38,548 nt of DNA from IMG/VR virus record IMGVR_UViG_2718217885_000011. One strand, 5' to 3'. Source of the DNA: a virus. Lineage: Duplodnaviria > Heunggongvirae > Uroviricota > Caudoviricetes. The notes beneath the pieces are model-generated. The model was not told where the DNA came from, did no database searches, and saw only the letters and a list, made by a program, of their open reading frames with translations. The translations under genes were made by a program, and so were the position numbers. Numbering within the stretch: position 1 is the first letter of the stretch; the number at the start of each line of letters is the position of its first letter. Positions 2,621 through 38,548 of the stretch are shown piece by piece.

Positions 2621-2732
2621 AACTGAAGTTGCCCTGAAAATGAAATTTTTTTGCACAACCGCAGAACTTTTCCGCAGGGCATCAGTCTTAATTAGTGCCA
2701 CTGCTTTTCTTTGATGTCCCCATTTTGTGGAG

Positions 2733-2776
2733 CCCATCAACCCCGCCATTTCGGTTCAAGGTTGATGGGTTTTTTG
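2733..2776 (+). terminator. rho-independent terminator downstream of ybjL
   Basis: perfect 10-bp stem cccatcaacc / ggttgatggg with 17-nt loop followed by TTTTTTG. Confidence 0.6.
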
Positions 2777-2855
2777 TTGCCTGAAATTTATGCCTTTTAA
2801 AATCATGATGTTAGAAGCACTGTTTTTTAACGATGGCGACATAATGGCGGCAGCG

Positions 2856-4747: not shown

Positions 4748-7700
4748 GCGTCGTATCCCCCCTGATCGCTGTAGTTACTCCTGGCTTTTGCCTTCAGCCT
4801 GCGTTCACGTTCATCAAGCTGGCGTGCCACCTCCCGCGCAATATCCTGCGCACTTTGTCCTAGCTGCGTCTGAATGATGATCTGCGTCGGTGCCTCAATC
4901 CGTTGAACGAGCGGCACAGTGGCTGCGCGACTCACAATTGCTTCTCCACCTTTCGCGGGAAGTGCCAAAGGGTGCAACGGTGGAAGCTCTGCTGGCGCGG
5001 CAGCAACGCCCATCATTCCGGCAACAACGGCAGCCAGTGCAGCTGTATTTCTCCGGCTGGTCACATTTGCCGGGCCGTTAACAATTTCCGGCCCGTTTTC
5101 ACCGACGATGCCAAACTGCCCGCGCGGGATATACCCGCCGCTGTCATACATCCCCGCAAAGCCATATCCCCATGATGGAAAACCACCCGATGGCATCATC
5201 ACTTTACCGTCTGCATTCACCGTCGCAGGTTGCTGACGCGTCACGCTTTCCGGCAGTTTTGCCTTTGCGGCCTCTTTACTGACAATGCCGAGCTTCTCCA
5301 GCAACCAGGAAACGCCGGATTTCAGGGAGTCCAGCGGATGCATGACCATATTCAGCCCTTCCGCCAGTGCCTCCCCGAATCGCCGCCCCATTGCCGCTGC
5401 GCTCTGCAGTTCGGCAGCGGTCGACTTAACGGGCGTCAGCAGATCAGTAAACCAGCCCCACAGCGCCTGCACTTTGTCGCCAATCCACTGGAACACGGGC
5501 TTAAGCGGTTCGAACGCTGCACTGATGGGACCTGCCGCCGCTTTGAATCCTTCCACCACGCCACCGAGAAATGCGGTGATGGGTTGCCAGTATTTCCAGA
5601 CAACCAGCGCCACGCCCGCCAGTGCAGTAACCACAAGACCTATCGGACTGAGCAGAGCACCTAACAGACCAGATATGGCATACAGGGCAACGCGCAGCAT
5701 CGCCAGTGGACCAGATGCCAGTACTCGCAGCACCGTGCCTGCGGCGGCCAGTCCACCGCGCAGTACCGCCAGAGGATTCATAAACATCACAGCAACAGCA
5801 CGTAAACCGGATAATCCAGACCGCAAAAGTGCAACCGGCGCACCTGCTACAGTTTTCAGGACATTTCCCGTCAGTGATGCCGTGCGGCGCAAAGACGACA
5901 ACGGCGCAGTAAGTAAACCTGCGGCGTTGCCCGATGAAGCAAGCCCGCGTCGCAGCAGTGCCAGTGGTGCGCCAGCCAGCCAGGACAACGCGCTGCTGGT
6001 TCGAGTTACTGCTGCCGTAACGGAAGATAACGTTTTGATACCCAACACAGAGAATCCCAGACGGATCACTGCCAGCGGCCCCAGCACTGCAGCCAGCGCC
6101 ACCGCTAAGGTGCCGAGGCCGACGGTAACCGCAGCCACAACAGCCGATGCTTTCATCAGTGTGCCTGTCAGTTCCGGGTTAGCTTCCACCCAGCGACGCA
6201 ACGCCCCCGTGACGCTTTTCACCGTGTACAGAATATCCATCAGCGGCTGGCGCAGCGTTTCGCCCAGGCTGCTGAAGGTGTTCTGCGCTCCGGTTTTGAC
6301 CAGCAACCACTGCGCAGAAAGTGAATCCTTGTTAATGTCGGATTCTTTCTGCATGGAGCCGAGCGCATCATTGCCCGCTGTCAGTTTTAACTGACGCTGC
6401 AGTTCCGGCAGGTTGTTTGCCAGTTTCGCCGCGTCATCGCCAAACTCTTTACCAAACAACATAGTCATGGCAGACAGGCGCTTGTCCTGCGGCAGCGCGT
6501 TTACCTTCTCCAGCACGCGCTGGATGGTTCCCATCGCATCCTTCGTCATCTGCTTTTCAATCACTTCAGGATTGAGTTTCAGCAGATTCATCCCTTCAAA
6601 GAAACTCTTGCTTTGCATGGTGGCAATGGACAATTCACGCACCATCGCGTTTGCTGCACTGGCTGCAACCTCTGGCGCAGCGCCCAGTGTCAGGAAGGTG
6701 GAACCCAGCGCCGCCGCTTTACGATAATCCAGACGGTCAGCCACACCGCCCAGACGTTGCATCACATCAATGATGTCTGCCCCTTTCGACATGGCGTTAT
6801 CATCCAGATAGTTCAGCGCATCACCGAGCTGTTCAATATTGCGGGTGGGGATTTTGTAGAGCTGGGCGATTTTCCCCAGACTTTCTGACAGTTCATCCGC
6901 TGGCAGCTCAAAGGCTGTTGCCGCCTTTGCTGCCGTACTGGCGAAGGCCAGCAGGTCACGTTTCTGATCTTCCCAGCTGTCGTCAGGGTTTGCGACGTTC
7001 ATGCGCGCACCACCTTCAACCAGTGCAGCGAAGTCCACCGCACCGTTTTCCATCGGCAACTGTTCGCTGGCAGCCTTGATGGCATCCTGCATTTCATAAA
7101 AACGTGCAGTGCGGTTGCCATTATCGTCACGCAGACCATTGACCTGCTTTGCCACACCTTTCATGGCATCTTCCATGCTGGTATAGCTTTTTACTGCCGC
7201 CATCACTGGCGCACCCATTGCCAGCCCTGCAGCCGTGGTGGTGGCTCCGGCACCTGCAATACGATCACGCACCTCCAGCGAACGGGCATAACTGGCACGC
7301 GCTGCATTCATCCTGCGCTGAGCTTCCCCCAGTCGCTTCAGCCGCGCCTCCTGTTTCGAAAGTTCCTGGTTATAACGTGATGTTTCACGGGCTAAACGGG
7401 CAGTTGCTCCCGCATCGTCTTTCGCAGAAATTCCCGCCCGGTACAGTTCAGCACGCACAAGCGCCGTCTGCTGCTGCAGCTTTTTCTGGCGTTCTTCCAG
7501 GCGCTGAACAGCCAGCCGTTGACGGCCCAGAGCAACAACCTGACGTTGCGAAGGCGGCCCCATCGCTCCCAGTTCCTGACTGAGCAAATTTGCACGCTGG
7601 CGGGCATAGTTCAGCCTGTCGCCTAATTTCTGATTTTCTGCCTGCAGCTTTCGGAAGCTGTCCAGACTGATCCCGGCCTGATCAAGCTGCTTTATTGCAT

Positions 7701-22168: not shown

Positions 22169-23935
22169 ATGAACACCACACTGACACCCGCAGATCTCGA
22201 TCCCCGTCGGCAGGCCATGCTGCTGTACTTTCAGGGATACCGCGTAGCCCGCATTGCTGAAATGCTGGGCGAGAAAGTTGCAACCGTTCACAGCTGGAAA
22301 AAACGCGACAAGTGGGGTGACTATGGGCCGCTGGATCAGATGCAGCTCACCACCGCCGCACGCTACTGCCAGCTCATTATGAAGGAGCACAAAGAAGGGA
22401 AAGATTTCAAAGAGATTGACCTGCTGGCGCGCCAGTCGGAACGCCACGCGCGGATCGGCAAGTTTAACAATGGCGGCAACGAAGCCGACTTAAACCCTAA
22501 CGTCGCCAACCGCAACAAAGGCCCACGCCGGCAGCCGGAAAAGAACGTTTTCACCGATGAACAGATTGAGAAGCTGGAAGAAATTTTCCATTCCTCCATG
22601 TTCAACTACCAGCGCCACTGGTGGGAAGCCGGAAAAACCAACCGCATCCGCAACCTGCTGAAGTCACGCCAGATCGGCGCGACCTTTTACTTTGCCCGTG
22701 AAGCCCTGATTGACGCCCTGCTTACCGGACGTAACCAGATTTTCCTTTCCGCCAGTAAGGCACAGGCCCACGTCTTTAAACAGTACATCATCGACTTCGC
22801 CAAAGAAGTGGAGGCGGAGCTGAAAGGCGATCCGATGGTGCTTCCCAACGGGGCCACGCTTTACTTCCTCGGCACCAATGCCCGCACTGCCCAGAGTTAC
22901 CACGGCAACCTGTATCTGGATGAATACTTCTGGATACCGAAATTCCAGGAGCTGCGCAAAGTGGCTTCCGGTATGGCTATTCACAAAAAATGGCGACAAA
23001 CCTATTTTTCCACACCATCCAGCCTGACACACAGTGCTTATCCGTTCTGGTCCGGTGCGCTGTTTAACCGTGGGCGCAACAAAGCCGATAAGGTGGACAT
23101 CGACCTGTCCCACAACAATCTGGCCCCCGGCCTGCTGTGCGCAGACGGGCAATACCGCCAGATAGTCACCGTGGAAGATGCGGTACGCGGCGGCTGTAAC
23201 CTGTTCGACCTCGACCAGCTACGCATGGAGTACAGCCCGGACGAATATCAGAACCTGCTGATGTGCGAGTTCGTGGACGATCTCGCGTCCGTGTTCCCGC
23301 TCAGCGAACTGCAGGCGTGCATGGTGGACAGTTGGGAAGTCTGGACCGATTTTCATGCACTGGCCCTGCGCCCGTTTAGCTGGCGCGAGGTGTGGATCGG
23401 TTATGACCCGGCAAAAGGTACGCAGAACGGCGACAGCGCCGGATGCGTGGTGGTGGCACCGCCAGCCGTGCCAGGCGGTAAGTTTCGCATTCTTGAGCGT
23501 CACCAGTGGCGCGGGATGGACTTCCGCGCCCAGGCTGATGCAATCAAAAAACTGACCGAGCAGTACAACGTGACCTATATCGGCATCGACTCGACAGGCG
23601 TCGGTCACGGGGTTTATGAGAACGTGAAAGCGTTCTTTCCTGCCGTCCGGGAGTTTGTCTACAACCCCAACGTTAAAAACGCTCTGGTACTCAAGGCCTA
23701 CGACATTATCAGCCACCGCCGTCTGGAGTTTGACGCCGGACACACCGACATAGCGCAGTCCTTTATGGCAATCCGTCGCGCCACCACCGCCAGTGGCAAC
23801 CGCCCGACCTATGAAGCCAGCCGCAGCGAAGAAGCCAGCCACGCCGATCTGGCATGGGCAACGATGCACGCACTGTTTAACGAACCGCTGCAGGGCGAAT
23901 CCGCCAATACCAGCAATATTGTGGAGATTTTTTGA
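22169..23935 (+). CDS. terminase ATPase (large) subunit P
   Basis: 588-aa ORF divergent from O, P2 P size. Confidence 0.9.
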   Translation: MNTTLTPADLDPRRQAMLLYFQGYRVARIAEMLGEKVATVHSWKKRDKWGDYGPLDQMQLTTAARYCQLIMKEHKEGKDFKEIDLLARQSERHARIGKFNNGGNEADLNPNVANRNKGPRRQPEKNVFTDEQIEKLEEIFHSSMFNYQRHWWEAGKTNRIRNLLKSRQIGATFYFAREALIDALLTGRNQIFLSASKAQAHVFKQYIIDFAKEVEAELKGDPMVLPNGATLYFLGTNARTAQSYHGNLYLDEYFWIPKFQELRKVASGMAIHKKWRQTYFSTPSSLTHSAYPFWSGALFNRGRNKADKVDIDLSHNNLAPGLLCADGQYRQIVTVEDAVRGGCNLFDLDQLRMEYSPDEYQNLLMCEFVDDLASVFPLSELQACMVDSWEVWTDFHALALRPFSWREVWIGYDPAKGTQNGDSAGCVVVAPPAVPGGKFRILERHQWRGMDFRAQADAIKKLTEQYNVTYIGIDSTGVGHGVYENVKAFFPAVREFVYNPNVKNALVLKAYDIISHRRLEFDAGHTDIAQSFMAIRRATTASGNRPTYEASRSEEASHADLAWATMHALFNEPLQGESANTSNIVEIF

Positions 23936-25009: not shown

Positions 25010-25711
25010 TTAAATTTCCCTTTCAAGAATATGAGAAACTATTGTCTCAGTTAAATATTTAACCATACCCTCGTTAGCACAGACAGAACCATTCTTCGAT
25101 ATCTCAAATTCACAACGATGTCCTAGAACATATCCTGCCGCCCTGACCTTATCAAGAGAATATGCTTTATCCCCAATAATATCCTTCACATCATCAAATG
25201 CATTTTTCTTAGATGTAACCTCTACGGTTGCCTTAGAGTTATCATTAACTATCAAATTACTAACCTTAACCTTCTTGATACTAACAAGTTCCAAATCATA
25301 TTTTTTATGCAGCGAATCCAAATACTCAGACAGTTTAATATCAACGATGCCAAACCCTATTTTATAACCTGAATCCGCACTAAGTCGCTCTGTCAAAGCC
25401 TTTATTGATTTTGGTGGATTGTAAACTGATAATAAATATAACCTACCTATGAGTTTAGATATAGAGAACTGAATTGACTCATAAGTAATGAACTCTTGTT
25501 CATTTTCGTTACCCAAAGGATCAACTGAAGTCTGTTTATTCAACTTAGCTTCAGTATACTTAGCTGATAGTACGTCAGATGAAACTTCAAAGTCAGAATA
25601 ACCATAGCCAAGTTCTTCAGAGTATTTGTTACTCTTTATATAAAAAGCAATCTCACTTAATGTAAGATTAGACTTCAATCTATTCCATTTAACTCTGATC
25701 AGACTTTCCAT
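25010..25711 (-). CDS. cargo operon gene 3, hypothetical protein (233 aa), no recognisable domain
   Basis: ATG start with GGGGAAG SD-like sequence, 23-nt overlap with the upstream gene; AT-rich codon usage unlike the phage core. Confidence 0.7.
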   Translation of the reverse strand: MESLIRVKWNRLKSNLTLSEIAFYIKSNKYSEELGYGYSDFEVSSDVLSAKYTEAKLNKQTSVDPLGNENEQEFITYESIQFSISKLIGRLYLLSVYNPPKSIKALTERLSADSGYKIGFGIVDIKLSEYLDSLHKKYDLELVSIKKVKVSNLIVNDNSKATVEVTSKKNAFDDVKDIIGDKAYSLDKVRAAGYVLGHRCEFEISKNGSVCANEGMVKYLTETIVSHILEREI

Positions 25712-26813
25712 CTTTCTTCCCCTGAGCCTGTTTATTTAGTTCAATTATAATGGAACGGGCTGCCTTTTCAATCATACGACTAAAAAATAACTTCTGACTA
25801 TCTTTCAACTGGACTGTTGACTTATTATACTCGCCACCCCCTTTGTATTTTTTAATACCTTTAGCTATATATGAAAACCCCTTAAAATTTTGAGCGTCGT
25901 TAAATTGCGCTTCAAACTCAAAAATATTTGGATCCGCACCTTTCTCTTTAACTCGCCATTTAATTTTACATATATAAAAGCCACGCTCATAAAGTGAGTA
26001 GATTTCTTCAGATTTGAGCACCCCTTCCCCTTTCAACGATGCCTTACTAACATGTACTCCTAAATCTGTTTCGCCGTCTTCCTCTTCAATCTCTTCTGGT
26101 TTTGGGTGATAAACATAAGCATCTGTTACATCATCGAGTTCATAACCTTCAAGCCCATTTATTAATTTCGTAAAGAAATCAGTTCTGGACTGAGGGGAAT
26201 CAATGTTTTCTAGACTTATTTCTTGGATATCGAGAGTAGCGTCCGAAATTGGTTTTCCTTCCTCAATCGCTCTTTCCTTTGATAATCTTTCAACGATAGC
26301 AAGTAACTGATTCTCATAAACCTCAGTTTGCTCATTATCTGGACGGCGAATCACATAACCAGCTTCTGTTGGCTCTACCTCTATGACAGCTTGCTTTTTA
26401 ACGACTTGTTTGAAATCACTTTTTGAAAAATTTGTTGACATATAAGTTATATGAATATTTATCATGCCACTTTTATCAGCAACTATATGGCAGAGGTCTT
26501 TTTGGTCTGTTAACTCTTTTTTTAGCGAATCCGCCGCTTTTAATAAAATTGTTTTTTCAGGCATATTAGATACTAATCTTGAAGTAGAACGCTCCCTCCG
26601 AGGCTCACTTCCTAATATCTCTGCAATTTTCTGATGATCATAGTAATCATGAGTGAACTTTGAGAAGTTTTTAGCTAATAATTTTCTATCGGTGTTTTTT
26701 GAAATAATTATACCTCTTGAAAGATAAAGCTCTCTCATCTCATTTTGAGTTACTTGTGACTGGTTAAGAGCATCACATAAAACCTTATCCGTCACACTAT
26801 AAATATTGCTCAT
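25689..26813 (-). CDS. cargo operon gene 2, hypothetical protein (374 aa) with acidic stretch, no recognisable domain
   Basis: ATG start 1 nt after the stop of gene 1 (TGA-T-ATG); long uninterrupted AT-rich ORF. Confidence 0.7.
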   Translation of the reverse strand: MSNIYSVTDKVLCDALNQSQVTQNEMRELYLSRGIIISKNTDRKLLAKNFSKFTHDYYDHQKIAEILGSEPRRERSTSRLVSNMPEKTILLKAADSLKKELTDQKDLCHIVADKSGMINIHITYMSTNFSKSDFKQVVKKQAVIEVEPTEAGYVIRRPDNEQTEVYENQLLAIVERLSKERAIEEGKPISDATLDIQEISLENIDSPQSRTDFFTKLINGLEGYELDDVTDAYVYHPKPEEIEEEDGETDLGVHVSKASLKGEGVLKSEEIYSLYERGFYICKIKWRVKEKGADPNIFEFEAQFNDAQNFKGFSYIAKGIKKYKGGGEYNKSTVQLKDSQKLFFSRMIEKAARSIIIELNKQAQGKKDGKSDQS

Positions 26814-26814
26814 A

Positions 26815-27879
26815 TCAATAATCCCAAGATGTTGATTCAGTACTATAAAACTCTTTAACTGTAGGAACTAAATAAATATCCATAGAAAGTAGTTTTTCCT
26901 TTGCACTATCATCATAATTCCAATCAAAAGCATACTTCTGAAGTGCCCGTTTAAAATGCGATCTTATTGAATCATTCCGATCTTTTGTCGCGATACGTAT
27001 TCTTATGTTGTTTTTTCCATTCAGAATCTGGTAGTTAGTTAAAAGATCAAAGAGATAATAAAACTCCATATCTGTGGAGCCCGGACGATTATAATATACA
27101 ACATACCCTGCAGGATAAACTTCAACTTCTCTTTGTAGCTCGCGATTATACGAGTAAACTGCATCATGTTTAATAATTAAAAATGGAGCAGTCAAAGACT
27201 CTATCGTTGCAGGTAAATAATCATCGGTGACAATTACCTTATGATATGTAAGTTGAGGGTAATAAAAACCATACTCATCTCTCGGGAATTGATTATCTCT
27301 GATTAATTCATTCATATCTGCGATTATAGATAACATATAGCTAATCGACTTAGGCTCAATTATATGTATTTGTTGCCCATCAGACACTTTTATATTATCT
27401 AATTTAACTGCCTTCGGCTTTCTTTTTCTTCCTGCAGGTTTGGGAGGATCGAAGAAATCATAAAAGTTATGCTCAAAATCGTTATCATGATTATAAACAA
27501 ACAATAACCCTCTAACCTCACTATCCCCAACGCATATATTATATTTCTCTCTCCACTCCGGACTATATTGAGCACAGGAAATTGTATACCCTAGGGATGT
27601 CAGCGCTTTTTCTATCATGTCAGGATTAATAGAACCCTTAGAGTAACTTTTTAGGTCAGTATTCAATAAAATAGTTTTATTTAAATAAGGGTCTTTATAG
27701 CTAAAAACCACATCGACAGGGTGTGTATGAGCCTGCTTTTTTTCGAGTGGTTTATGATTTTCTTCGTCAATACATCCAAAGTCCTGATCACACGGCCCTG
27801 ATATGCTCCATTTAAAGCGCTCAAAAATCTTCGATGATACTATCTTTGCTAATTCTTCTATCGGTCCGTTCTCAGCCAC
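26815..27879 (-). CDS. cargo operon gene 1, hypothetical protein (~354 aa); possible PD-(D/E)xK-like motif (HPVD ... ILLNTDLK)
   Basis: ORF open to TTG at 27912; GTG at 27879 preceded by AAGGGGA is the preferred start; no P-loop. Confidence 0.65.
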   Translation of the reverse strand: MAENGPIEELAKIVSSKIFERFKWSISGPCDQDFGCIDEENHKPLEKKQAHTHPVDVVFSYKDPYLNKTILLNTDLKSYSKGSINPDMIEKALTSLGYTISCAQYSPEWREKYNICVGDSEVRGLLFVYNHDNDFEHNFYDFFDPPKPAGRKRKPKAVKLDNIKVSDGQQIHIIEPKSISYMLSIIADMNELIRDNQFPRDEYGFYYPQLTYHKVIVTDDYLPATIESLTAPFLIIKHDAVYSYNRELQREVEVYPAGYVVYYNRPGSTDMEFYYLFDLLTNYQILNGKNNIRIRIATKDRNDSIRSHFKRALQKYAFDWNYDDSAKEKLLSMDIYLVPTVKEFYSTESTSWDY

Positions 27880-28007
27880 AATACATCCCCTTAACCTGAT
27901 CTTTCTCGGCAAAATCCTATGGACAAGATAAGTAAATCATTGTTCCTTTGCAAGAATGGAGGCGCATTATGCTTAGTAGTGAAATATGACATCAAGCGCG
28001 CGCTCGT

Positions 28008-28026: not shown

Positions 28027-28400
28027 GCTTTATGCAGTGGTTTTCATGCACATGCATAACATGAGCAAAAGCCCGCCAGTTCTGGCGGATCTGAGCAAAG
28101 ACGATCCTCAATCGATCATGCGATTTCATGCAGCATAGTCATGCACTGTCAAGGAAGTGAAAATCCGTATCTGAATGGCCACTTGAAAAACGGATCATAC
28201 GGGTTTACAAAGATGAATGTTCGCTGTGAACGGGAAGCGGAAGTTAACTTTCAGATAACATAATCCATATGCACGAGAACCTCTAAAATAGAATGGGACA
28301 CCTAAGCGGGGTACTTACAACGATTCTTTCCATATTCACAGTTAACACTCTGTTTGGCGTATTTTTATTCAAATAGCAAACACCAATAAAAGGAGTTTCC

Positions 28401-29513: not shown

Positions 29514-31928
29514 TTAATACAGGTTCCGCCACTTATCATCTTCCTTCAGACGCTGGTTCCGATAGAAGATACGCAGGCCTGCTCCTGACGGAATACTGCC
29601 GCCGCGAAGGAGCAAATCGACTTCTTTCTCGCTGCCATCAAATCCCCTGGACTTCAGTTCATAGACGAGCTGCTGTCGCTGATGGTCTGTAATTCGCTGT
29701 TTGTAGTCTTTACGCCGTTTCGGTTTCACCTGGCGTAACCTTGCAGCCAGTTCCCGGCGCTCTTTTTTGCTCATACTGTGCAGGTAATTGTGCAACTCCT
29801 TGTCATTCATACGGGTAATATCCGTTCTGGAGTCCCCATCAGCTGATTTGTCTTTCCCTTGCTGGTTCAAATTTTCAGCAAGGGGACAGTTATTGCCACG
29901 AGTCCAAGGGGCGCAAGCGCCCTGGTCGGCTGCCGCCTCCTGAACGTCAACGGCCTTACGAACCATTTTCCACTTCACTGCATGAGTGCAGATCTTGCCC
30001 TCTGCAATGGGTGACCAGATGCCATAAATACGAATGCCGTGATCGCCATAGGCGGTCGGCTCTTCGTTGATTTCATAAGCGGTTCTGATGAGGTGATATT
30101 TGCGGGGAACCAGTACGCCGCCCTGCTTCATGATGTAGGTGGCAAAACAACCAGCATCAGCAGCAGCCAGGATGGCATCAAGGCGTGGGTTATCCAGTAC
30201 CGGCGCACCTGCTTTTTTGTCCCCCTGTTGCCTTGCCGCCTGACCAGCCAGCAATCGCAGTTCACGGTAAGCCTGACGCCCCGGAATGCCAAAGAAGCGG
30301 AATTGCTGAACACGATGCAGAGACGCCCAGGCATTAACGTATTCAGCGTTATCACGCAGGGATTTACCCGTTTCCTTGCTGATCTCGCCAGCCAGACCAC
30401 GCCCGTCAATGTTCTTACTGATGTATTTCGCGATGTAGCTTGTTGGCGTACCTTTGCGCGGGTTTATCAGCTCAGACTTAAAGCGTGGTCCTGTGTTATT
30501 ACCCAGCTCCTCGCGGTCTTCACGAATGGCAAACTTACGCAACAAAGCAGTAATGGCGCGGCGATCTTTTTTGCGCATAAAACACAACAGGTGCCAGTGA
30601 ACTGTACCGTCATGATGCGGCTCAGCCACCCGCACGCCATACCAGCGCAATCCGGCTTTGTACATCGCCTTACGAAATGCAGCAAACATGCCGACCAGAT
30701 AATCACTGCTTTGTCTTACCGTCGCATTTGTCCAGGTCGGGTTGGGCCTGCCGTTATTTAGCGTGGAATGGAAACGTGACGGACAGGTGATGGTGTAGAA
30801 AACGGCGCAGTCGCCACGCATTTCCGCGATAAGCTCCAGACCTTTAACACAGGCCATCATCTCATTGCGGCGATGCGCAGGGTTGCTGCTGCTGGCGTTT
30901 ACCACATCCTCCATGTCCAGAGTGTCGCCGTCTTCGTTCACCAGTTCATGAGAACGGAAAAACTCCAGCGACTTACGGCGCTGCTCACGTTTATGCATCA
31001 CGGCTTCATAGCTGACATAGGGAGATGCTTTTTTGCTGACAAGGCAGACAGCACGCAACTGCTCTTCCCGCCATTCGCAACGCATCTTCCATAATTTCCG
31101 ATACCACCAGTCGGCGCACAACATACGCGCCAGCGAACCCGGAATGAGTTCATAGGGCACGGGTTTACGGCGGTTTCTTTTCCGACGGAGTTGCTCAAAC
31201 GCAGGCGGGATGACATCCAGACGCACGGTTTCCGCTGCCACCTTTTCCCATGTCTTGCGGATTTCTGCTGGCTTAACGTCATCGGTGGCATACAAATCGC
31301 CACAAGCTGCATCAAGGCACATGCTCATATGCGCAGCTACCAGGGTGGACAGGCGTTTCACCTGATCCTGACTCATTTCAGGCAGGATCAGCAGGCCGTC
31401 CAGCCCTTCATGGCTTGCCATAAAGCGAAAAGAAGTGGATAGCTGACTGTCGCGTACATGCTCCAGTCGTTCAAGACATGGCTTAATCGTCTCACGCAAA
31501 TAGCGGAAATAAGCCTTTGGCCTGCCCAGGCTGCTGAAGTATTCAATACGTTGCATCAGCGGCTTGCTGATGTGGGAAGGCTGGGCATTGACGTCCGCCA
31601 GAATGACCATTTCTGGATTAAAACGCTGCTGCTCATGCGCCAGCTTTGCCCGGCTAATGAGCTTATCCTGCTCCATTCCGCGTTGGACAGGATCACGGGA
31701 TTCATTAAAGAAATAACGCTCCCAGACCTGCTCACTCAGTGCCTCGTGGCGCAGTTGTTCCTGCTCGTTATCGGCAGCGTACAGAGTGATCAGGTTTGAA
31801 AGTGCAGACTCCGGCGCAACTTCCGCCGGGTCCAGATAAGGGTTAATGGCCTTTTTCGGGCCGTTCCATGAAAATGATGCAGCGGCCTCGTTAAAGCCGC
31901 TAGAGTTGCTCATATCGTCATAACTCAT
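29514..31928 (-). CDS. replication initiation protein A (rolling-circle HUH endonuclease)
   Basis: 804-aa ORF with HWHLLCF (HUH) and YIAKYISK (catalytic Tyr) motifs as in P2 gpA. Confidence 0.9.
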
Positions 31929-32782
31929 ACACGCACCTCGTACACAGCAGAACTATCTACGCCACGCGAAGGATCAAATCCCACCCAGCAGCGCGCCCCG
32001 GAAACAGCAATGATTTCTGTTGCAGATTTACTCTCGCCAGCCGACACGCCGATGCTGCGTTTTGCCTTGATGTAGTGGTGAGTGAAATTGCGATACAGCG
32101 AACGAATCAGGGATGTGTCACTGTTAGAAACAATGACCGGATGACCTTCAGATGATCGATGTTCAAGAACGGATGCCAGGTGATACTGGTCATCTTCAGT
32201 GAAGCCATCAGTGTGATAGCCGGAAAACGTACCGTCATAAGGCGGATCGCAATACACCACATCCCCCACCTTCAACATCGCCAGCGTTTCATCAAAGCTG
32301 GCGCAGATAAACGTTGCCCGCTGGGCTTTCTCTGCAAATGCGCGAATTTCTTTTTCAGGGAAATACGGATTTTTATAATTACCGTAGGGAATGTTGAAAT
32401 ACCCGCTCTTGTTATAGCGACATAACCCACGGTAACCATGACGATTGAGATACAGAAAATATACCGCTTTCATGAAATCAGTAATTTCAGTGGAGTAATT
32501 AAACTCCTGCCTTATGTTGTAATAAGCCACCTCCCTGTTTGCTTCCTCAAATAAAGCTCTGGCACGAGATATAAACGCCTCACAATCAGCAGCAACCTTT
32601 TTATAGAGGTTGATTAAATCAGGATTAATATCCGCAACAAGATAGCTGGGGTAATCCGTCTCCATCATCACTGCACAGGAACCCGCGAAAGGTTCAACCA
32701 GTCGCGGGCCAGCAGGAAGATGCTTTTTCAGTTCGGACATTATGGCGGTTTTATTTCCCGCCCATTTCAGGATGGTGCTCAT
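31925..32782 (-). CDS. dam: DNA adenine methyltransferase (Dam family, N6-adenine)
   Basis: [17 protein letters not shown] and DPPY motifs; collinear with E. coli Dam throughout; start at [11 protein letters not shown] overlapping upstream stop; ORF track extends to 32842. Confidence 0.9.
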
Positions 32783-33006
32783 ACAGCACCTCCGTTGTAA
32801 TGTTTGCCTTTCAGCTCTGCGATTTCCTGACAGGTAATGCAAAGCTGCACACCCGGAATGGCACGACGGCGTGCTGGCGGAATTGGCGCTTCACACTCAA
32901 CGCAAAGCACGCGGGACACGCCCGGCGTTTTGGCACGGGCAGCACGGATATGACGTTGGCGTTCTTCTTCAACTCGCTGCTGTACGAGATCCATTGCATC
33001 AGCCAT
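32779..33006 (-). CDS. TraR/DksA-family C4 zinc-finger protein
   Basis: CVECEAPIPPARRRAIPGVQLCITCQE four-Cys motif, 75 aa. Confidence 0.75.
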   Translation of the reverse strand: MADAMDLVQQRVEEERQRHIRAARAKTPGVSRVLCVECEAPIPPARRRAIPGVQLCITCQEIAELKGKHYNGGAV

Positions 33007-33245
33007 CAGTGGATCTCCTGCGCTTCGTTCTGGATTGCTTCAGCAGTCACACGCAGCAGTTCTGCCGCTTCGACGTGGTTTAACTGGCGGGATGTGATAT
33101 GACACGCCAGGCGATCAAGGCGAGCTGCCATTGCTTCAGCCCTTGCCCGGCGTTCTTCCAGACGAGCCTCTGTCAGTAAAATATTAAGCCCTGCATCATC
33201 CGGTCCGGTTTTAGTCGTGAGGGTATCAATATTACGCATAATCAA
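33006..33245 (-). CDS. hypothetical early protein (79 aa)
   Basis: ORF in the early leftward operon, translationally coupled to the downstream gene. Confidence 0.5.
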   Translation of the reverse strand: MIMRNIDTLTTKTGPDDAGLNILLTEARLEERRARAEAMAARLDRLACHITSRQLNHVEAAELLRVTAEAIQNEAQEIH

Positions 33246-33306: not shown

Positions 33307-33648
33307 TTAATTCGGCATGGTTAGCCGTCTGGGAAATAAGCTCACCACTGCACGAAAATGATTCATTGCTTTAATCAGCTCCCGCTTTTCGTCAGTGGTC
33401 AGCTCATTAATGCTGATGCTATGACGTTCAGCTGGAATTTTTGCCATAAAGAATATGGCAGCCAGTGCCCGTTTATTTTGTTCATTATTGATATCCCGTG
33501 GATCACGCATATCTTTAATAAACCGCTCAAGCTCTGACTCAATATTCAGGCCAAAAACTTTCGCCCTTAACTCCGCAATATGATTAAGTCCATTCAGGCG
33601 TTCACCGGGGCTTAATGGAACAGTCGCCGCAGCGCCTTCAATAGCCAT
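33307..33648 (-). CDS. hypothetical early protein (113 aa)
   Basis: ORF in the early operon; start uncertain. Confidence 0.5.
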   Translation of the reverse strand: MAIEGAAATVPLSPGERLNGLNHIAELRAKVFGLNIESELERFIKDMRDPRDINNEQNKRALAAIFFMAKIPAERHSISINELTTDEKRELIKAMNHFRAVVSLFPRRLTMPN

Positions 33649-33812
33649 TGGTTCCCCCGTTTTTTCGTTGATAGTTCTGCCAGCAATTCATCTTGTGAAC
33701 GGCACGGATGCCAGCGTTTACCATCCTCACCCATGATCCAGCCGTGACCGTAGTGCATTGCCGGGCTTTGTTTTACCAGCAGCGATGCAAATGATGGTTC
33801 TTTCGTCAGCAT
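33612..33812 (-). CDS. hypothetical early protein downstream of cII (position of 186 fil)
   Basis: ORF 33612..33842 in track; internal Met preferred to avoid overlap with cII; assignment by position only. Confidence 0.4.
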   Translation of the reverse strand: MLTKEPSFASLLVKQSPAMHYGHGWIMGEDGKRWHPCRSQDELLAELSTKKRGNQWLLKALRRLFH

Positions 33813-33819
33813 AAGCACC

Positions 33820-34329
33820 TCACAGCAAACCAAATGAAGCACCGAGGCCAGTCACGGTATCAACTGCACTCGCCATCGCAGGGTTAGCCTGTAAACGGGC
33901 CTGCAATGAAACAGCAGCCAACGCCATCAGTCGTGTTACAGAGTTAATGCTGCTGATAGCATCACGACGGCCTGCACTGGTTTTTACATCGCCAGACACC
34001 GCGCCTGCAGCTACACGCCCGATCTCTGCTGTTGCACTCATGACGTAATGCGGCAGTTTCTCTTTTGCCACCTCATTAATCGGAACACATGGCAGGCAGT
34101 GAATCTGTGCCAGAAAACCATCTACCAGTGTTGAGTCTTCTGTCAGATCAGTAAGCAACCAAATTTCTGGTGCGGTTAATAAATGAGGTTGAGCTGGATT
34201 CAGCTTGTTCCGCAGAATCTGCACATTCATACCTGCACGTTCTGCCAGTTGCACCAAGTTGTGGCGCAATGCAAATGCACGACAGGCTTCATCAAAATGT
34301 GGATGTTTGGAAACTTGGTAATCAAACAT
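33820..34329 (-). CDS. CII-like transcriptional activator (phage 186 CII family)
   Basis: [20 protein letters not shown]...[25 protein letters not shown] closely resembles 186 CII as recalled; start at internal Met, ORF track extends to 34383. Confidence 0.85.
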
Positions 34330-34361: not shown

Positions 34362-34583
34362 CTAGTTGAATACAACATTGCAATCAGCAAGTGCATCAAC
34401 GGTAAGAGCAGCAAGGTTGATCATTACCTTTTCTCTTTTCTTGTCTTTCCGAAGGCGATGGCGAGGGATACGACCATCAGCCAGCATATCGTTGATGGTG
34501 TCGATAGAAAGACCAGTAAGTTCGCTATAACGCTCAATTGTGACGTGTGGCGTATTCAGAGTTATTGAAATGTTAGGGGTCAT
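34362..34583 (-). CDS. Apl/Cox-like excisionase and repressor of lysogenic promoter
   Basis: 73-aa HTH protein, first gene of the operon divergent/convergent with cI. Confidence 0.7.
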
Positions 34584-34670
34584 GATGCAACATCTCCTAT
34601 TGGCTTGTGGTGAGCCGGTATTAATCGTGACAAAACATCACAAAACGGAGAATAGGTTCACATAAAGAAT
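34584..34670. promoter_or_regulatory. immunity switch region (lytic and lysogenic promoters, operators)
   Basis: 87-bp AT-rich interval between apl and cI starts; repeated acaaaac and cctatt/aatagg inverted elements. Confidence 0.45.
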
Positions 34671-35609
34671 ATGTCAACTCAAAAAATCACATTTCGCCAT
34701 ATTGAAGATAGTCTGAAAGCTATGGTCATGCAGAATCGTGGAGGGCAAAAAGTCATTGAGAGGATACTCAAGGCCTATGGTTTCAAATCACGCCAAGCCT
34801 TCTGTAAGCATCTTGGTATTTCACAAAGCACAATGGCTAATAGATATGCACGCGATACCTTCCCTGCTGATTGGGTTGTTATATGTTCAATGGAAACTGG
34901 CGCATCCCTAGAATGGCTGGCCTTTGGTTCTAACAATGCAGAAGAAAGTTTCCCCCCTTATGTGGAACAACATGATGAAACAGTCCCACATGAGGGGTTT
35001 AACAGCAACGCTCATCAATCATCCTTTAAGCGCCGCATTGAGAATCACATTGAGCTTACTAACGGAGGAAAAGCCGCGATAGAGAGGATTGTTAATGCTT
35101 ACGGGTTTAAAACCCGCCAAGCCTTAGCCGACCACCTTGGTATTTCAAAAAGCACATTAGCCACACGATACATGCGAGATTCTTTCCCTGCGGATTGGGT
35201 GATTAAATGCGCATTAGAAACCAAAGCGGATCTCGCCTGGCTAGTTACAGGAATCGAAACACCAAATAGTTCACAAGAAGAAAACACTGTAATTTTAAAT
35301 AAGTTCAATTTGGTCAATGGCGTGCTTGTCGAGTCAGGTTTTTTATCCATGGATCGGTGTCTACTTCCGAAGCAAGAAACTAGCAGCTTGATGTTTGTAA
35401 GCAATGGAGAAAAACATGTCATATGTGATAAAGAATTTCACCTAATTAGAGATGGAAAATGGTTAGTAGGAATTGACAATGAGTTATCTTTAAAAGAGTT
35501 AACTCGTTTACCTAAGAACAAAATTCTTGTTTCTGGTGGGAGTAAGGATTTTGAGTGTTCCATTGAGGATATTCAAATTATAGCCAGCATTATCTTAACA
35601 ATACAATAA
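34671..35609 (+). CDS. CI-type immunity repressor (186 CI family) with tandem duplicated N-terminal HTH domain
   Basis: two ~65-aa repeats (IERILKAYGFKSRQAFCKHLGISQSTMANRYARDTFPADW... / IERIVNAYGFKTRQALADHLGISKSTLATRYMRDSFPADW...) plus a C-terminal domain resembling 186 CI. Confidence 0.8.
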   Translation: MSTQKITFRHIEDSLKAMVMQNRGGQKVIERILKAYGFKSRQAFCKHLGISQSTMANRYARDTFPADWVVICSMETGASLEWLAFGSNNAEESFPPYVEQHDETVPHEGFNSNAHQSSFKRRIENHIELTNGGKAAIERIVNAYGFKTRQALADHLGISKSTLATRYMRDSFPADWVIKCALETKADLAWLVTGIETPNSSQEENTVILNKFNLVNGVLVESGFLSMDRCLLPKQETSSLMFVSNGEKHVICDKEFHLIRDGKWLVGIDNELSLKELTRLPKNKILVSGGSKDFECSIEDIQIIASIILTIQ

Positions 35610-35652: not shown

Positions 35653-37422
35653 ATGAATCATCATCTTTCAAAGATTTCTATAAAAAACTTTAGATCTTGC
35701 AAAGATATTGATATCAATTTTTCTTCATTCACGCCTTTAATCGGTTACAACAATGCTGGTAAGTCAACGATTTTAAATGCTATTGAATGGCTTTTTAAGA
35801 AAAAACTTTTGTCCTCTGATGATTATACTAATCCAGATAACCCTATAGAAGTTATAGGTACAGTTAAGGGTATTACTGAAGATATTTTGTCAGCTTTAAC
35901 AGAAGAAAACAGAACTAGAATTTCACCCTACATTATTGATGGGGTATTGATATTTAAGCGTCAACAGACTGTTGGTGCTCAAAGTGCAAAAGACGTCAGA
36001 TTATTAATTAAAAACCCAGAAAATAACGAATTCAGGACATCACCAACGGGTATTGAGAATGCGATAAAAGCTTTATTTCCAGACCCAATACGTATAGGTG
36101 CAATGGAAAATGCAGCGGATGATTCTTCAAAATCAAAAACAGGAACTACAATAGGTAAGTTGCTGGCAGAATTGAGTTGCAAAATAGAAGAGAAGCACAC
36201 TCAAAGGATACTAAGCCATTTAAATGCCGTTAATAGAAGAATGACTGCAACCGGTAATAAACGAATATCGGACCTCAATGATATTGATGATTCAATAAGT
36301 AGTAAACTTGCTGATTTCTTCCTTGGGATAAGTTTAAAACTACACTTCGAACTCCCTGACTTCAAGGATATATTTAAATCTGGGACTGTAAAAGTATATG
36401 AAGATTCATTTCCCGGCATTGCTCGTGACTGTTCTTCTTATGGTCATGGCACACAGCGTTCGATTCAGATGTCTCTAATAAGACATTTAGCTGATATAAC
36501 CAACGGTGATGATATTAAAACAACTACTCTACTGTTAATAGATGAACCTGAGTTATATCTTCACCCATTTGCTATCGAACAAATTAGAGAATCTCTAAAA
36601 ACACTATCTCATCATGGATATCAAATAATTTTCTCTACCCATTCATCTCAAATGATTACCTCTGACTTAGCAAAAGACACTGTGTTAATCAGAAAAAACA
36701 GTCAGCGTGGCACTCATTGCAGATTAACATTAAAAGAAGCAGTCAATAAAGTAATCGAACAACGACCAGCACAAGCAACCCATTTATTTTCATTAACACA
36801 GTCTTCAAAAGTTTTGTTTGCTAACAATGTAATACTAACAGAAGGTAAAACAGAGACTACTCTGCTCCCATTTATTTTTAACAAAGTTAAAAATAAAACA
36901 TTAGGTCAGATGCAAATAGCACTAATTGAAACAGGGTCCGTTGAAAGTATATCTAAAACGATGCAAATTCTAAATTCAATGGATATACCTACAAAAGCAA
37001 TTGTTGATTTAGATTTTGCGTTCCGCGGTGCAATAAGGAACAACTTCTTAGAACATAATGACGAGGATATTTTACGACTAAAAGAAATCTTGAGAAGTAT
37101 GCATGCTAATGGAGAATGCACTCTCGATGGATCCGGTTTGCCTACAAAGGGTAGTAACACTACCGCAGCTGAAGCATTTGCTATTATGTCTCAAAAGCCC
37201 GGCGCCAGAGAATTTTTGTCATCATTAGCCGCAAAACTGAGAAATGCAAATATTTGGATTTGGCTAAATGGTTCGATAGAAAACCATTTGGGTCTTACAG
37301 AAAAAAATGAATCAGTATGGGCTGATTTCAAAACAAAAGCAGATACACAACCTCTTTCAGATATCTGTGCAGATTTCGAAAGTATTGAGGCTTTAGTCGA
37401 CTGGATTACCCCTGACGTATGA
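35653..37422 (+). CDS. OLD-family ATP-dependent endonuclease (ABC-type ATPase + TOPRIM), P2 Old-like class 1
   Basis: Walker A GYNNAGKST, Walker B LLLIDEPELYLHP, FSTHS, then TOPRIM-like VILTEGKTE and VDLDF; 589 aa (P2 Old ~586 aa); strong GGAGG SD. Confidence 0.85.
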   Translation: MNHHLSKISIKNFRSCKDIDINFSSFTPLIGYNNAGKSTILNAIEWLFKKKLLSSDDYTNPDNPIEVIGTVKGITEDILSALTEENRTRISPYIIDGVLIFKRQQTVGAQSAKDVRLLIKNPENNEFRTSPTGIENAIKALFPDPIRIGAMENAADDSSKSKTGTTIGKLLAELSCKIEEKHTQRILSHLNAVNRRMTATGNKRISDLNDIDDSISSKLADFFLGISLKLHFELPDFKDIFKSGTVKVYEDSFPGIARDCSSYGHGTQRSIQMSLIRHLADITNGDDIKTTTLLLIDEPELYLHPFAIEQIRESLKTLSHHGYQIIFSTHSSQMITSDLAKDTVLIRKNSQRGTHCRLTLKEAVNKVIEQRPAQATHLFSLTQSSKVLFANNVILTEGKTETTLLPFIFNKVKNKTLGQMQIALIETGSVESISKTMQILNSMDIPTKAIVDLDFAFRGAIRNNFLEHNDEDILRLKEILRSMHANGECTLDGSGLPTKGSNTTAAEAFAIMSQKPGAREFLSSLAAKLRNANIWIWLNGSIENHLGLTEKNESVWADFKTKADTQPLSDICADFESIEALVDWITPDV

Positions 37423-37495: not shown

Positions 37496-38548
37496 ATGGC
37501 AGTACGAAAACTCACCACAGGAAAATGGCTTTGCGAATGTTACCCCGCCGGACGTAGTGGGCGTCGGGTGCGTAAACAATTCGCCACCAAAGGCGAAGCT
37601 CTGGCTTTTGAGCGCCACACGATGGAAGAAACCGAAGCAAAGCCCTGGCTGGGTGAATCAGTGGATCGTCGAACACTGAAAGACGTGGTTGAGCTATGGT
37701 TCAAACTACATGGTAAATCTCTGACAGCTGGGCAGCATGTCTATGACAAATTGCTGTTGATGGTTGACGCTCTGGGTAATCCTCTTGCAACCGATCTCAC
37801 CTCTAAAATGTTTGCCCACTATCGAGATAAACGCCTGACAGGCGAGATCTACTTCAGCGAGAAATGGAAGAAAGGAGCAAGCCCGGTCACCATTAACCTG
37901 GAGCAAAGCTATCTAAGTAGTGTTTTTAGCGAACTATCCCGTCTGGGCGAATGGTCGTATCCGAACCCACTGGAGAACATGCGAAAATTCACCATCGCAG
38001 AAAAAGAGATGGCATGGCTTACCCATGAGCAGATTGTTGAATTGCTGGCTGATTGCAAACGTCAGGACCCAATTCTGGCACTGGTAGTTAAGATATGCTT
38101 AAGCACAGGCGCACGCTGGCGTGAAGCCGTAAATCTTACCCGCTCACAGGTGACCAAATACCGAATTACCTTTGTCAGAACGAAGGGGAAGAAAAACAGA
38201 AGCATCCCTATCAGTAAAGAGCTTTACGAAGAGATCATGGCGCTTGATGGGTTCAATTTCTTTACAGACTGCTATTTTCAATTTTTATCCGTGATGGAAA
38301 AAACGTCTATCGTGCTCCCTCGCGGTCAACTCACACACGTTCTGCGCCATACGTTTGCGGCGCACTTCATGATGTCGGGTGGAAACATTCTCGCCTTACA
38401 AAAAATTCTCGGACACCACGATATAAAAATGACTATGCGTTACGCACATCTGGCACCAGATCATCTGGAAACGGCGCTCCGTTTCAATCCTCTGGCAACG
38501 CTGCCAAGTGGCGACAAAGTGGCGGCAGCGGTTGGCATTACCCCGTAA
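37496..38548 (+). CDS. int: tyrosine integrase (P2/186 family)
   Basis: 350-aa ORF; N-terminus like 186/P2 Int; C-terminal HxxR...Y catalytic region (LRHTFAAHFMMSGGNILALQKILGHHDIKMTMRYAH). Confidence 0.9.
   Translation: MAVRKLTTGKWLCECYPAGRSGRRVRKQFATKGEALAFERHTMEETEAKPWLGESVDRRTLKDVVELWFKLHGKSLTAGQHVYDKLLLMVDALGNPLATDLTSKMFAHYRDKRLTGEIYFSEKWKKGASPVTINLEQSYLSSVFSELSRLGEWSYPNPLENMRKFTIAEKEMAWLTHEQIVELLADCKRQDPILALVVKICLSTGARWREAVNLTRSQVTKYRITFVRTKGKKNRSIPISKELYEEIMALDGFNFFTDCYFQFLSVMEKTSIVLPRGQLTHVLRHTFAAHFMMSGGNILALQKILGHHDIKMTMRYAHLAPDHLETALRFNPLATLPSGDKVAAAVGITP

Follow-up and report, generated by a model that had tools for sequence, protein, structure and literature searches.

A TraR-family zinc-finger gene and an orphan Dam methyltransferase gene upstream of replication gene A in a 186/P2-like prophage

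Our analysis of a 38,548-nucleotide window, the whole stretch of DNA under study, suggests that the two genes just upstream of replication gene A are unremarkable members of the early lytic operon, a TraR-family factor followed by an orphan GATC-type Dam methyltransferase in a variable slot, and that the overlaps between genes reflect the style of the operon; we place the probability of this reading at roughly 0.78. The genes lie on the minus strand, with the TraR-like gene at 32779-33006, the Dam gene at 31925-32782 and replication gene A at 29514-31928, and ATGA overlaps link consecutive genes. The arrangement is already known and is correctly named by annotation pipelines, and the stretch contains nothing new.

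The early operon and its relatives

The prophage is 186/P2-like (Peduoviridae, Kapieceevirus-like) and its integration site adjoins rybB in an Escherichia-type chromosome. Rfam and tRNA scans returned nothing in or near the TraR-Dam-A stretch, the sole find being the host rybB gene at 2700-2778. Gene order is of the 186/P2 type, with the repressor divergent from apl/cox, followed by cII, small genes, DUF2732, the TraR-like gene and, further on, A. A candidate pR-like early lytic promoter (TTGACA-17-TATTCT, 34649..34677, minus strand), which is a consensus match only, points away from the CI repressor gene and lies at a position equivalent to that of phage 186 pR. The first gene of the operon (34362..34583) is an ORF for an Apl/Cox-like excisionase-repressor, whose homologue in Klebsiella phage ST512-KPC3phi13.2 carries the label ‘Cox-like excisionase and repressor’ and for which the Pfam scan gave no match. 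Next on the same strand are a CII-like regulator of the CP76 family (33820..34329; Pfam Phage_CP76, 4.4e-42; annotated as CII-like in a relative), a Fil-like small DUF2724 gene (33612..33812, an ORF with coordinates taken from the NC_049452 annotation and called ‘cell division inhibitor’ in relatives), a DUF5347 protein (33307..33648; Pfam DUF5347, 3.7e-33) and a DUF2732 protein of the P2 Orf80/186 CP80 type (33006..33239; Pfam DUF2732, 7e-28), with counterparts in both phages. The operon then continues with the 75 aa TraR-family C4 zinc-finger protein (Pfam zf-dskA_traR, TIGR02419 and phrog_54), the 285 aa orphan Dam-family N6-adenine methyltransferase (Pfam MethyltransfD12 and TIGR00571), which has an ATGA overlap at each end, and the 804 aa product of gene A, a rolling-circle initiator/nickase (Pfam Phage_GPA, 3.1e-126) that is annotated in relatives.

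An earlier note on this DNA had named a Dam-family methyltransferase, a TraR-type zinc finger and gene A, and strong homology matches bear out all three identities. Its placement of the genes in an early lytic operon fits the 186-like map and the candidate promoter at 34677-34649, which was the sole sigma-70-like match on the minus strand between 28800 and 35000; the TraR-like and Dam genes are presumably expressed early. The start/stop overlap that it described for TraR and Dam was also confirmed when the minus-strand junctions were read directly from the sequence; these are TGATG for DUF2732/TraR and ATGA for both TraR/Dam and Dam/gpA. Each downstream start is preceded by its own Shine-Dalgarno-like sequence (AGGAGA for the TraR-like gene, GGAGGTG for Dam and GAGGTG for gpA), and nearly every gene of the operon, whatever its identity, is joined to its neighbour by an overlap of the ATGA type. 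Stop/start overlaps are a general packing and coupling style of this early operon, and not a mark of TraR/Dam pairing.

The plan from CI, apl and cII to A is also that of the phage 186 early operon (CP80, CP81, CP82, CP83, orf84 and A). In 186, as here, a DUF2732 gene and a DksA-like zinc-finger gene are followed by a cargo segment whose last gene overlaps A, although this segment consists of an exonuclease, DUF5405 and the PAPS-reductase-like orf84 in 186 and of a single Dam gene in our prophage. In the phage 186 record, the genes that correspond to these early ones are marked ‘not essential’.

Comparison with closer relatives found the stretch to be 97 % identical at the nucleotide level to Klebsiella Kapieceevirus phages with matching annotation. 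More broadly, Kapieceevirus/Fels-2-like prophages of Klebsiella, Salmonella and E. coli (e.g. ST512-KPC3phi13.2 gp05-gp08; 95-97 % nucleotide identity) have the same order of DUF2732, TraR/DksA-like gene, Dam (858 bp) and replication endonuclease (2415 bp), and show no substantive difference in this stretch, whereas the immunity region and defence cargo differ. A matching gene order has been tabulated for a prophage of K. pneumoniae Kp52145 (PMC7826664). [quoted passage not shown] The exact Dam protein was found on 284 contigs and the exact TraR-like protein on at least 1000. This arrangement is among the commonest prophage gene orders in the Enterobacteriaceae.

The TraR-like protein and its association with Dam

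The TraR-like protein matched Pfam zf-dskA_traR (PF01258; 4.4e-11, 43 bits against a cut-off of 24.9), NCBIfam TIGR02419 (67.1 bits against 59.7) and phrog_54, ‘DksA-like zinc-finger protein’ (1.8e-30), and its sequence also matched that of TraR in complexes with RNA polymerase. It fell short of the equivalog cut-offs for F TraR (NF010268; 40.8 bits against 108) and YbiI (NF008243; 54.9 bits against 96), and it thus belongs to the TraR family but is neither F TraR nor YbiI. Sequence identity is 46 % with P2 Orf82 and 39 % with F TraR, and in alignment with both proteins the C4 zinc site (C35, C38, C56 and C59) is invariant, as are R46-R47. The latter correspond to TraR R48-R49, which contact the rim helices and beta-prime Si3 of RNA polymerase (PMC9239242). 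The N-terminal tip, MADAMDLV, keeps D3 and D6 of the DxxDxA motif, both shared with TraR and P2 Orf82, but is incomplete in having Val at the Ala position; this motif reaches the RNA polymerase active site (PMC9239242). P2 Orf82 has Ile at that position and is still active, with a lower activity that has been linked to this defect (PMC9239242). The two proteins also share family TIGR02419 and an operon position after the DUF2732 gene and before A; they are positional orthologues. Comparison of the TraR-like gene with the copy in the Klebsiella phage gave a dN/dS of 0.085.

TraR, lambda Orf73 and P2 Orf82 have all been shown to bind RNA polymerase and to inhibit rRNA promoters, and Orf82 also complemented a dksA deletion (PMC9239242). 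The role at the RNA polymerase secondary channel that had been proposed for the TraR-like protein is backed, by analogy, by these P2 Orf82 experiments. The 75 aa protein would most likely bind the secondary channel of the host enzyme during lytic growth, as P2 Orf82 does, and lower the activity of rRNA and ribosomal-protein promoters, so that resources are freed for the phage.

Whether this protein and Dam belong together is a separate matter. The earlier note had viewed them as a host-modulation and anti-restriction pair, and the ATGA overlap within one operon is what a co-selected, translationally coupled functional pair acting in early host modulation and anti-restriction might look like. 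The order DUF2732-TraR-Dam-gpA is also the second commonest architecture in our survey of 78 related prophage loci from different species, being found in 6 of the 78, and 2 further loci have TraR-Dam-gpA with DUF2732 undetected. However, the two genes occur independently across the 78 loci: 16 carried both, 31 TraR only, 17 Dam only and 14 neither, and co-occurrence was not enriched (Fisher odds ratio 0.43, p=0.10). An exonuclease, DUF3850 or other genes often intervene between the TraR-like gene and Dam, and P2 and 186 both have a TraR-like gene without Dam. Similar overlaps at DUF2732/TraR and at Dam/A mean that the overlap is not specific to TraR/Dam. We therefore regard a functional pair as unlikely.

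The Dam methyltransferase and its predicted specificity

The Dam ORF (858 bp) starts at ATG 32782. An alternative upstream start at TTG 32842 was rejected on account of the GGAGGTG ribosome-binding site at ATG 32782, the length of 858 bp annotated in relatives and alignment with the N-terminus of E. coli Dam (EcoDam). The protein matched the full length of PF02086 MethyltransfD12 (profile 1-253/253; 1e-76, 258 bits against a cut-off of 22), scored 323.4 bits against a cut-off of 114.85 for TIGR00571, matched EcoDam crystal-structure sequences with E = 7.7e-74 and is 47.5 % identical to E. coli Dam across its full length. It scored below the chromosomal Dam equivalog NF008152 (288.9 bits against a cut-off of 441), and is therefore a Dam-family paralogue and not the orthologue of host Dam. 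It is phage-borne and sited in a phage early operon. Comparison with EcoDam (PDB 2G1P) revealed N120 replaced by Arg, R137 by Asn and the final Gly of motif I by Cys, together with a different C-terminal tail of ~25 aa. The best PADLOC match was ‘orphan methyltransferase’ (1.3e-111), and ORF, Pfam and PADLOC searches found no nuclease gene adjoining Dam, whose neighbours are the TraR-like gene and gpA; a restriction-modification system was ruled out, there being no adjacent nuclease gene. G+C content is 46.9 % for Dam, 55.7 % for the TraR-like gene and 53.0 % for gpA, a dip too small to argue for recent acquisition of Dam from base composition.

The motifs quoted in the earlier note are present (ILKWAGNK at residues 4-11 and DPPY at 179-182), and the catalytic motif, whose integrity on alignment it had singled out for checking, is intact, with D179-P180-P181-Y182 aligning with EcoDam 181-184. 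Across 33 related prophage Dams (39-96 % identical), the D, the second P (EcoDam P183) and the Y are invariant and the first P (EcoDam P182) is present in 32 of the 33. AdoMet motif I (FxGxG) reads F32-A-G34-S-C36, and the position of its last Gly is variable among the prophage relatives (C in 19, A in 12 and G in 2), while D51, equivalent to the AdoMet-binding EcoDam D54, is invariant. Residues K6, W7, Y117, L120, R122, P132 and Y136 correspond to EcoDam K9, W10, Y119, L122, R124, P134 and Y138; six of these EcoDam residues (R124, Y119, L122, P134, K9 and Y138) have been described as reading GATC (PMC4417163). Conservation of the GATC-reading residues is 6 of 7, the exception being N120, which is R118 here. 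Equivalents of EcoDam R124, P134, W10 and K14 are invariant among the 33 prophage Dams. On these residues, the enzyme most likely methylates GATC, its predicted specificity.

According to the account cited in PMC7826664, a Dam methylase function is encoded in a 34-kb P2/186-like E. coli prophage with retron-Ec67 (Hsu, Inouye and Inouye 1990). That Dam may be related to ours, and a homologue search for the link returned only generic ‘DNA adenine methylase’ names.

What such an enzyme offers the phage can be suggested from its position. Dam would be produced together with the replication initiator, and fast-replicating phage DNA would probably be kept fully GATC-methylated once host Dam becomes limiting. 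The prophage contains 137 GATC sites against 134.5 expected, giving no signal of avoidance or enrichment across the prophage. Local GATC clusters were seen at 28088-28117 and at 22193/22199, at a frequency that a rough estimate places near chance. Given that the hosts, E. coli and Klebsiella, are Dam-positive and that the number of GATC sites is close to expectation, the case for anti-restriction through GATC methylation is weak. For a related reason, the comparison of lysogen and cured-strain methylomes that had been proposed as a check would be uninformative, as the host already methylates GATC and the operon is expected to be repressed in the lysogen.

Alternatively, Dam might act mainly on the host or in prophage maintenance: instead of modifying progeny DNA, it would bring about lysogenic conversion by altering host gene regulation, the mutation rate or the stability of the lysogen. 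The Dam of the Stx2 phage 933W is reportedly needed for stable lysogeny, which would favour such a role. Control of viral replication cycles has been suggested for many orphan methyltransferases (PMC12707154), which points the same way. Here, however, Dam is part of the early lytic operon repressed by CI and is not among the lysogenic-conversion loci, its strand shows no separate promoter-like site for it, and GATC is already methylated by the host. This makes a lysogenic function decidedly improbable.

A methyltransferase of relaxed or non-GATC specificity, giving broad protection against several restriction systems, is a very unlikely alternative to the GATC reading. It would accommodate the change of the base-contacting EcoDam N120 to R118 and the score below the chromosomal cut-off (289 against 441 bits), the slot elsewhere holds other DNA-modification-type genes, and semi-specific orphan methyltransferases of mobile elements have been noted in review (PMC12707154). 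Nevertheless, the residues at the third and fourth base pairs and for intercalation at GATC (R124, L122, P134 and Y119) are all kept, as are K9 and Y138 at the first pair, and both R and N are found at position 118 among the prophage Dams themselves (11 R vs 22 N).

The gene slot upstream of A

The slot directly upstream of gene A has interchangeable contents, of which Dam is one example. PAPS-reductase-like, C5-methylase, TGT-like, exonuclease and DUF genes are among the others; the slot holds Orf83 in P2, an exonuclease and Dam in SEN8, and DUF5405 with a TGT-like gene in SEN1. At least one DNA-modification-type gene was present in the slot in 39 of the 78 prophages surveyed, with Dam in 32, PAPS-reductase/DndC-like genes in 9, C5-methylases in 4 and TGT/DpdA-like genes in 2.

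Gene A, 2415 bp in length in relatives, overlaps the upstream Dam by ATGA. According to the phage 186 record, A apparently cannot be translated unless translation proceeds to the end of the preceding gene, orf84, and by analogy the overlaps suggest that Dam and A are translationally coupled. The overlap would probably make translation of A depend on translation of whichever gene fills the slot. The same record describes 186 tM1 as a terminator that acts when A is untranslated. A G+C-rich hairpin at 31880..31902 on the minus strand, a terminator-like match 26-48 nt inside gene A, is a weak candidate for its counterpart, with a centroid stem of 9 pairs, a fold z-score of -0.82 and a poor T-run.

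That Dam is kept mainly as a translated spacer for A expression, with an enzyme activity that is maybe dispensable or decaying, can hardly be credited: the 186 record on orf84, itself not essential, and the highly exchangeable contents of the slot would allow it, but the catalytic and DNA-contact residues are invariant in Dams 39-96 % identical and dN/dS is 0.20, which together indicate selection on the enzyme itself, and TraR abuts A directly in 15 of the 78 loci, so a spacer is not needed. A comparison of Dam with SEN8 for dN/dS was discarded, as the ungapped value (dN 0.89) pointed to indel misalignment.

We tentatively raise a wider possibility, on balance more doubtful than probable, that the short TraR-to-A segment of Peduoviridae early operons is a dedicated cargo slot, translationally coupled to A, in which DNA-modification enzymes preferentially accumulate. 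Produced with the replication initiator, they would modify nascent phage DNA, and the segment would be a hotspot of anti-restriction genes separate from the P2 defence hotspots already known.

In summary, the stretch matters little by itself, being a common and already annotated prophage arrangement, and the adjacency of two genes with overlapping codons in this early operon should not be taken as functional pairing. The locus does raise the question of what use a second GATC methylase is to a phage in Dam-positive hosts. The slot upstream of A, which often holds DNA-modifying enzymes, could guide searches for phage anti-restriction genes.

The prophage and its early operon

Nearly the whole window is a single P2/186-like prophage. 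Its left host flank contains an Asp-Al_Ex/TrkA-C permease gene, at the left end of the window, and the host small RNA gene rybB (2700-2778, plus strand; Rfam, 105 bits). Tail, head and packaging genes follow, and the early and immunity region forms the right end, which is closed by the integrase gene (37496-38548). Because rybB lies within ~400 bp of the gpD end of the prophage, the data suggest integration at or next to rybB; the second prophage end is outside the window, which ends at the integrase stop codon.

The early operon runs on the minus strand from an apl/cox-like gene (34362-34583) through cII of the CP76 family (33820-34329), a small fil-like gene, a DUF5347 gene (33307-33648), a DUF2732 gene (33006-33239), a TraR-like gene encoding 75 aa (32779-33006) and a Dam gene (31925-32782) to replication gene A (29514-31928), divergent from a CI-type repressor gene (34671-35609, plus strand). 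On the strand of the operon a single sigma-70-like site was present, at 34677-34649; it is a candidate promoter whose position matches pR of phage 186. The junction sequences were TGATG for DUF2732/TraR, ATGA for TraR/Dam and ATGA for Dam/A, with a Shine–Dalgarno-like sequence of its own before each downstream gene. The TraR-like gene and the Dam gene are both intact, with conserved sequence, and lie in an operon whose genes are linked by stop codons that overlap start codons. The features described in an earlier note on this DNA (a Dam ORF, a TraR-type ORF, their overlaps and adjacency to gene A) were all recovered by profile matches and by reading of the junctions.

The CI-type repressor (312 aa) has two tandem Phage_CI_repr helix-turn-helix domains, 63 % identical over 63 aa, before a single CI C-terminal domain; the cI gene is only 579 bp in phage 186 and 633 bp in SEN8, whereas that of SEN1 (861 bp) is another long form. 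Between the repressor and integrase genes lies a full-length Old-type ATPase-TOPRIM nuclease gene (35653-37422, plus strand; PADLOC Old, 5.6e-232; Pfam AAA_15 and OLD-like TOPRIM), unlike P2 old, which is located at the opposite genome end near cos. Three successive genes of 233, 374 and 365 aa (25010-27912, minus strand), flanked by the portal/terminase genes and the DinI/gpA side, had no Pfam match but matched PADLOC Hp3, Hp2 and Hp1 (6.9e-9, 2.5e-47 and 5.5e-64, respectively), and may form a defence cargo of three genes.

The Dam and TraR-like proteins

The Dam ORF covered the entire Pfam MethyltransfD12 profile (1e-76), scored 323 bits with TIGR00571, above its curated cut-off of 115, and matched the crystal-structure sequences of E. 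coli Dam (EcoDam) at E = 7.7e-74, with 47.5 % identity to EcoDam. It contains the motifs ILKWAGNK (residues 4-11) and DPPY (179-182), and its dN/dS against a Klebsiella phage copy was 0.20. An upstream TTG start in a mechanical ORF list was dropped in favour of the ATG at 32782, which has GGAGGTG just before it. With 289 bits against a cut-off of 441, the protein fell short of the model for the chromosomal Dam equivalog, indicating a phage-borne paralogue. No nuclease gene was adjacent to Dam among its gene neighbours in the window, and the best PADLOC model was 'orphan methyltransferase'.

In EcoDam, K9 and Y138 serve the first pair of GATC. The guanine of the fourth pair is contacted by R124 and the neighbouring pair by L122 and P134; Y119 intercalates and N120 forms a hydrogen bond to a base (PMC4417163). 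The GATC-reading equivalents R122, Y117, L120, P132, K6 and Y136 are all kept in the window's Dam, whereas N120 is replaced by R118. In an alignment of 33 Dam genes that related prophages carry in other species, with 39-96 % identity to that of the window, the equivalents of R124, P134, W10, K14 and D54 were invariant, as were the D, second P and Y of DPPY (first P in 32/33), while position 118 was N in 22 and R in 11. Based upon these conserved contact residues, GATC specificity is the best-supported prediction for this enzyme.

The Dam homologue search also returned a few E. coli proteins (456-496 aa) in which Dam is joined to a Phage_GPD domain, and the 90 % identity cluster of the window's Dam also contains 804-aa replication endonucleases. 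These could reflect fusion of neighbouring genes by prophage deletion or frame fusion, or a clustering artefact.

The 75-aa ORF matched zf-dskA_traR (4.4e-11), TIGR02419 (67.1 bits, cut-off 59.7) and, at 2e-9, TraR chains in cryo-EM entries of RNA polymerase. It is 39 % identical to F TraR and 46 % to P2 Orf82, which occupies the same place in its early operon, with a DUF2732 gene before it and A after it. D3, D6, four cysteines, an arginine pair equivalent to R48/R49 and a C-terminal K-H-Y are invariant among the three. Orf82 was among five such proteins reported to bind RNA polymerase, to inhibit promoters of rRNA and ribosomal-protein genes and to complement a dksA deletion; an incomplete DxxDxA motif may account for the lower activity of Orf82 (PMC9239242). 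The motif of the window's protein is similarly incomplete (D-A-M-D-L-V). The RNA polymerase mechanism that the earlier note had proposed for this gene is therefore reasonable by analogy with experiments on its orthologue.

Possible working of the two genes

By analogy with 186 and P2, the operon would be transcribed from the CI-repressed early promoter upon induction or infection. According to the phage 186 record, translation of A appears to need translation to the end of the preceding gene, and a terminator within A is active if A is untranslated. The ATGA overlap of Dam and A fits this design of coupling into A; a G+C-rich hairpin 26-48 nt inside A (31880-31902) was statistically unremarkable.

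The TraR-like protein would bind RNA polymerase and move host transcription off ribosome synthesis, and Dam, co-produced with the rolling-circle initiator, would keep GATC in replicating phage DNA fully methylated. The hosts are Dam-positive. Host Dam is limiting when phage DNA replicates rapidly, and MutH, SeqA and GATC-cleaving restriction enzymes act on GATC sites that are hemimethylated or unmethylated; full methylation would spare the phage DNA such sites. The prophage showed no GATC avoidance (137 sites, 134.5 expected). Three sites fall within 30 bp in an intergenic stretch upstream of 28401 (28088-28117), and two lie 6 bp apart at the terminase gene start (22193-22202); by a rough estimate, these local clusters do not exceed what is expected by chance. 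Comparison of lysogen and cured-strain methylomes, the check put forward in the earlier note, would be uninformative: GATC is methylated by the host in any case, and in a lysogen the operon is expected to be off. Dam homologues are encoded by numerous phages; P1 packaging requires GATC methylation, and what T4 Dam does in vivo has yet to be clarified (PMC12707154).

Distribution and the variable segment before gene A

The Dam/TraR-like arrangement is ordinary and already known. The 1082-bp stretch was 95-97 % identical to many Klebsiella Kapieceevirus phages and to Salmonella phages such as RE2010, in which the genes are annotated as DNA adenine methylase, TraR/DksA-like zinc-finger protein and replication endonuclease. 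It was present at ≥80 % coverage in 1230 of 5426 complete E. coli genomes, with identical PGAP names, and at 100 % identity in seven E. coli genomes among the matches listed. The exact Dam protein occurred in 284 contigs and the exact TraR-like protein in at least 1000. An identical gene run of equal lengths is tabulated for a 'Fels-2-like' prophage of K. pneumoniae Kp52145 (PMC7826664). More than 6500 protein clusters matched Dam at E ≤ 1e-30, and those with a source name were labelled DNA adenine methylase or Dam-family/site-specific adenine methyltransferase, across Enterobacterales.

Related prophages were surveyed by anchoring on gene A, with one genome per bacterial species, giving 80 loci, 78 with full-length A; upstream ORFs were typed by BLASTP against reference proteins and by Pfam. 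TraR-like genes were found in 47/78 loci, although sensitivity is limited for short divergent TraR-like proteins and the counts are not a precise estimate. Dam was found in 33/78 on the first pass and in 32/78 under a stricter coverage filter. Both genes were present in 16 loci, TraR only in 31, Dam only in 17 and neither in 14, with no positive association among the 78 loci (odds ratio 0.43, p = 0.10, kinship ignored). These figures speak against a strong TraR–Dam association. Where the earlier note read the two genes as an early host-modulation and anti-restriction pair, their identities, operon position and overlaps held, but a functional pair was not supported. At one surveyed locus (L017, Escherichia sp. 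MOD1-EC7003; 4851-5075 in a numbering that places gene A at ~6001), whose TraR-like protein, Dam and gpA are 97-99 % identical to those of the window, the TraR-like and Dam genes are separated by ~220-300 bp with a 66-aa ORF, whereas in the window they overlap.

What lies between the TraR-like gene and A is exchangeable between relatives (loci L005-L084, and also L003, L004 and L085). P2 carries Orf83, a DUF5405 protein, there; SEN8, a Salmonella phage, an exonuclease and Dam; SEN1, DUF5405 and a gene annotated as queuine tRNA-ribosyltransferase; and 186, an exonuclease, DUF5405 and the PAPS-reductase-like orf84. In the survey the segment held Dam (32 loci), DUF3850/ASCH-like (11), DUF5405 (10), PAPS-reductase-domain proteins (9), Rv2179c-like exonucleases (7), C5-cytosine methylases (4) and TGT-like genes (2), and in 15 loci it was empty, with TraR directly abutting A. 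Where Dam lay immediately before A, the ORFs overlapped or abutted in most cases. At least one DNA-modification-type gene (Dam, C5-methylase, PAPS-reductase-like or TGT-like) was present in 39/78 loci, and this recurrence of DNA-modification genes just before gene A is the sole, mildly novel thread.
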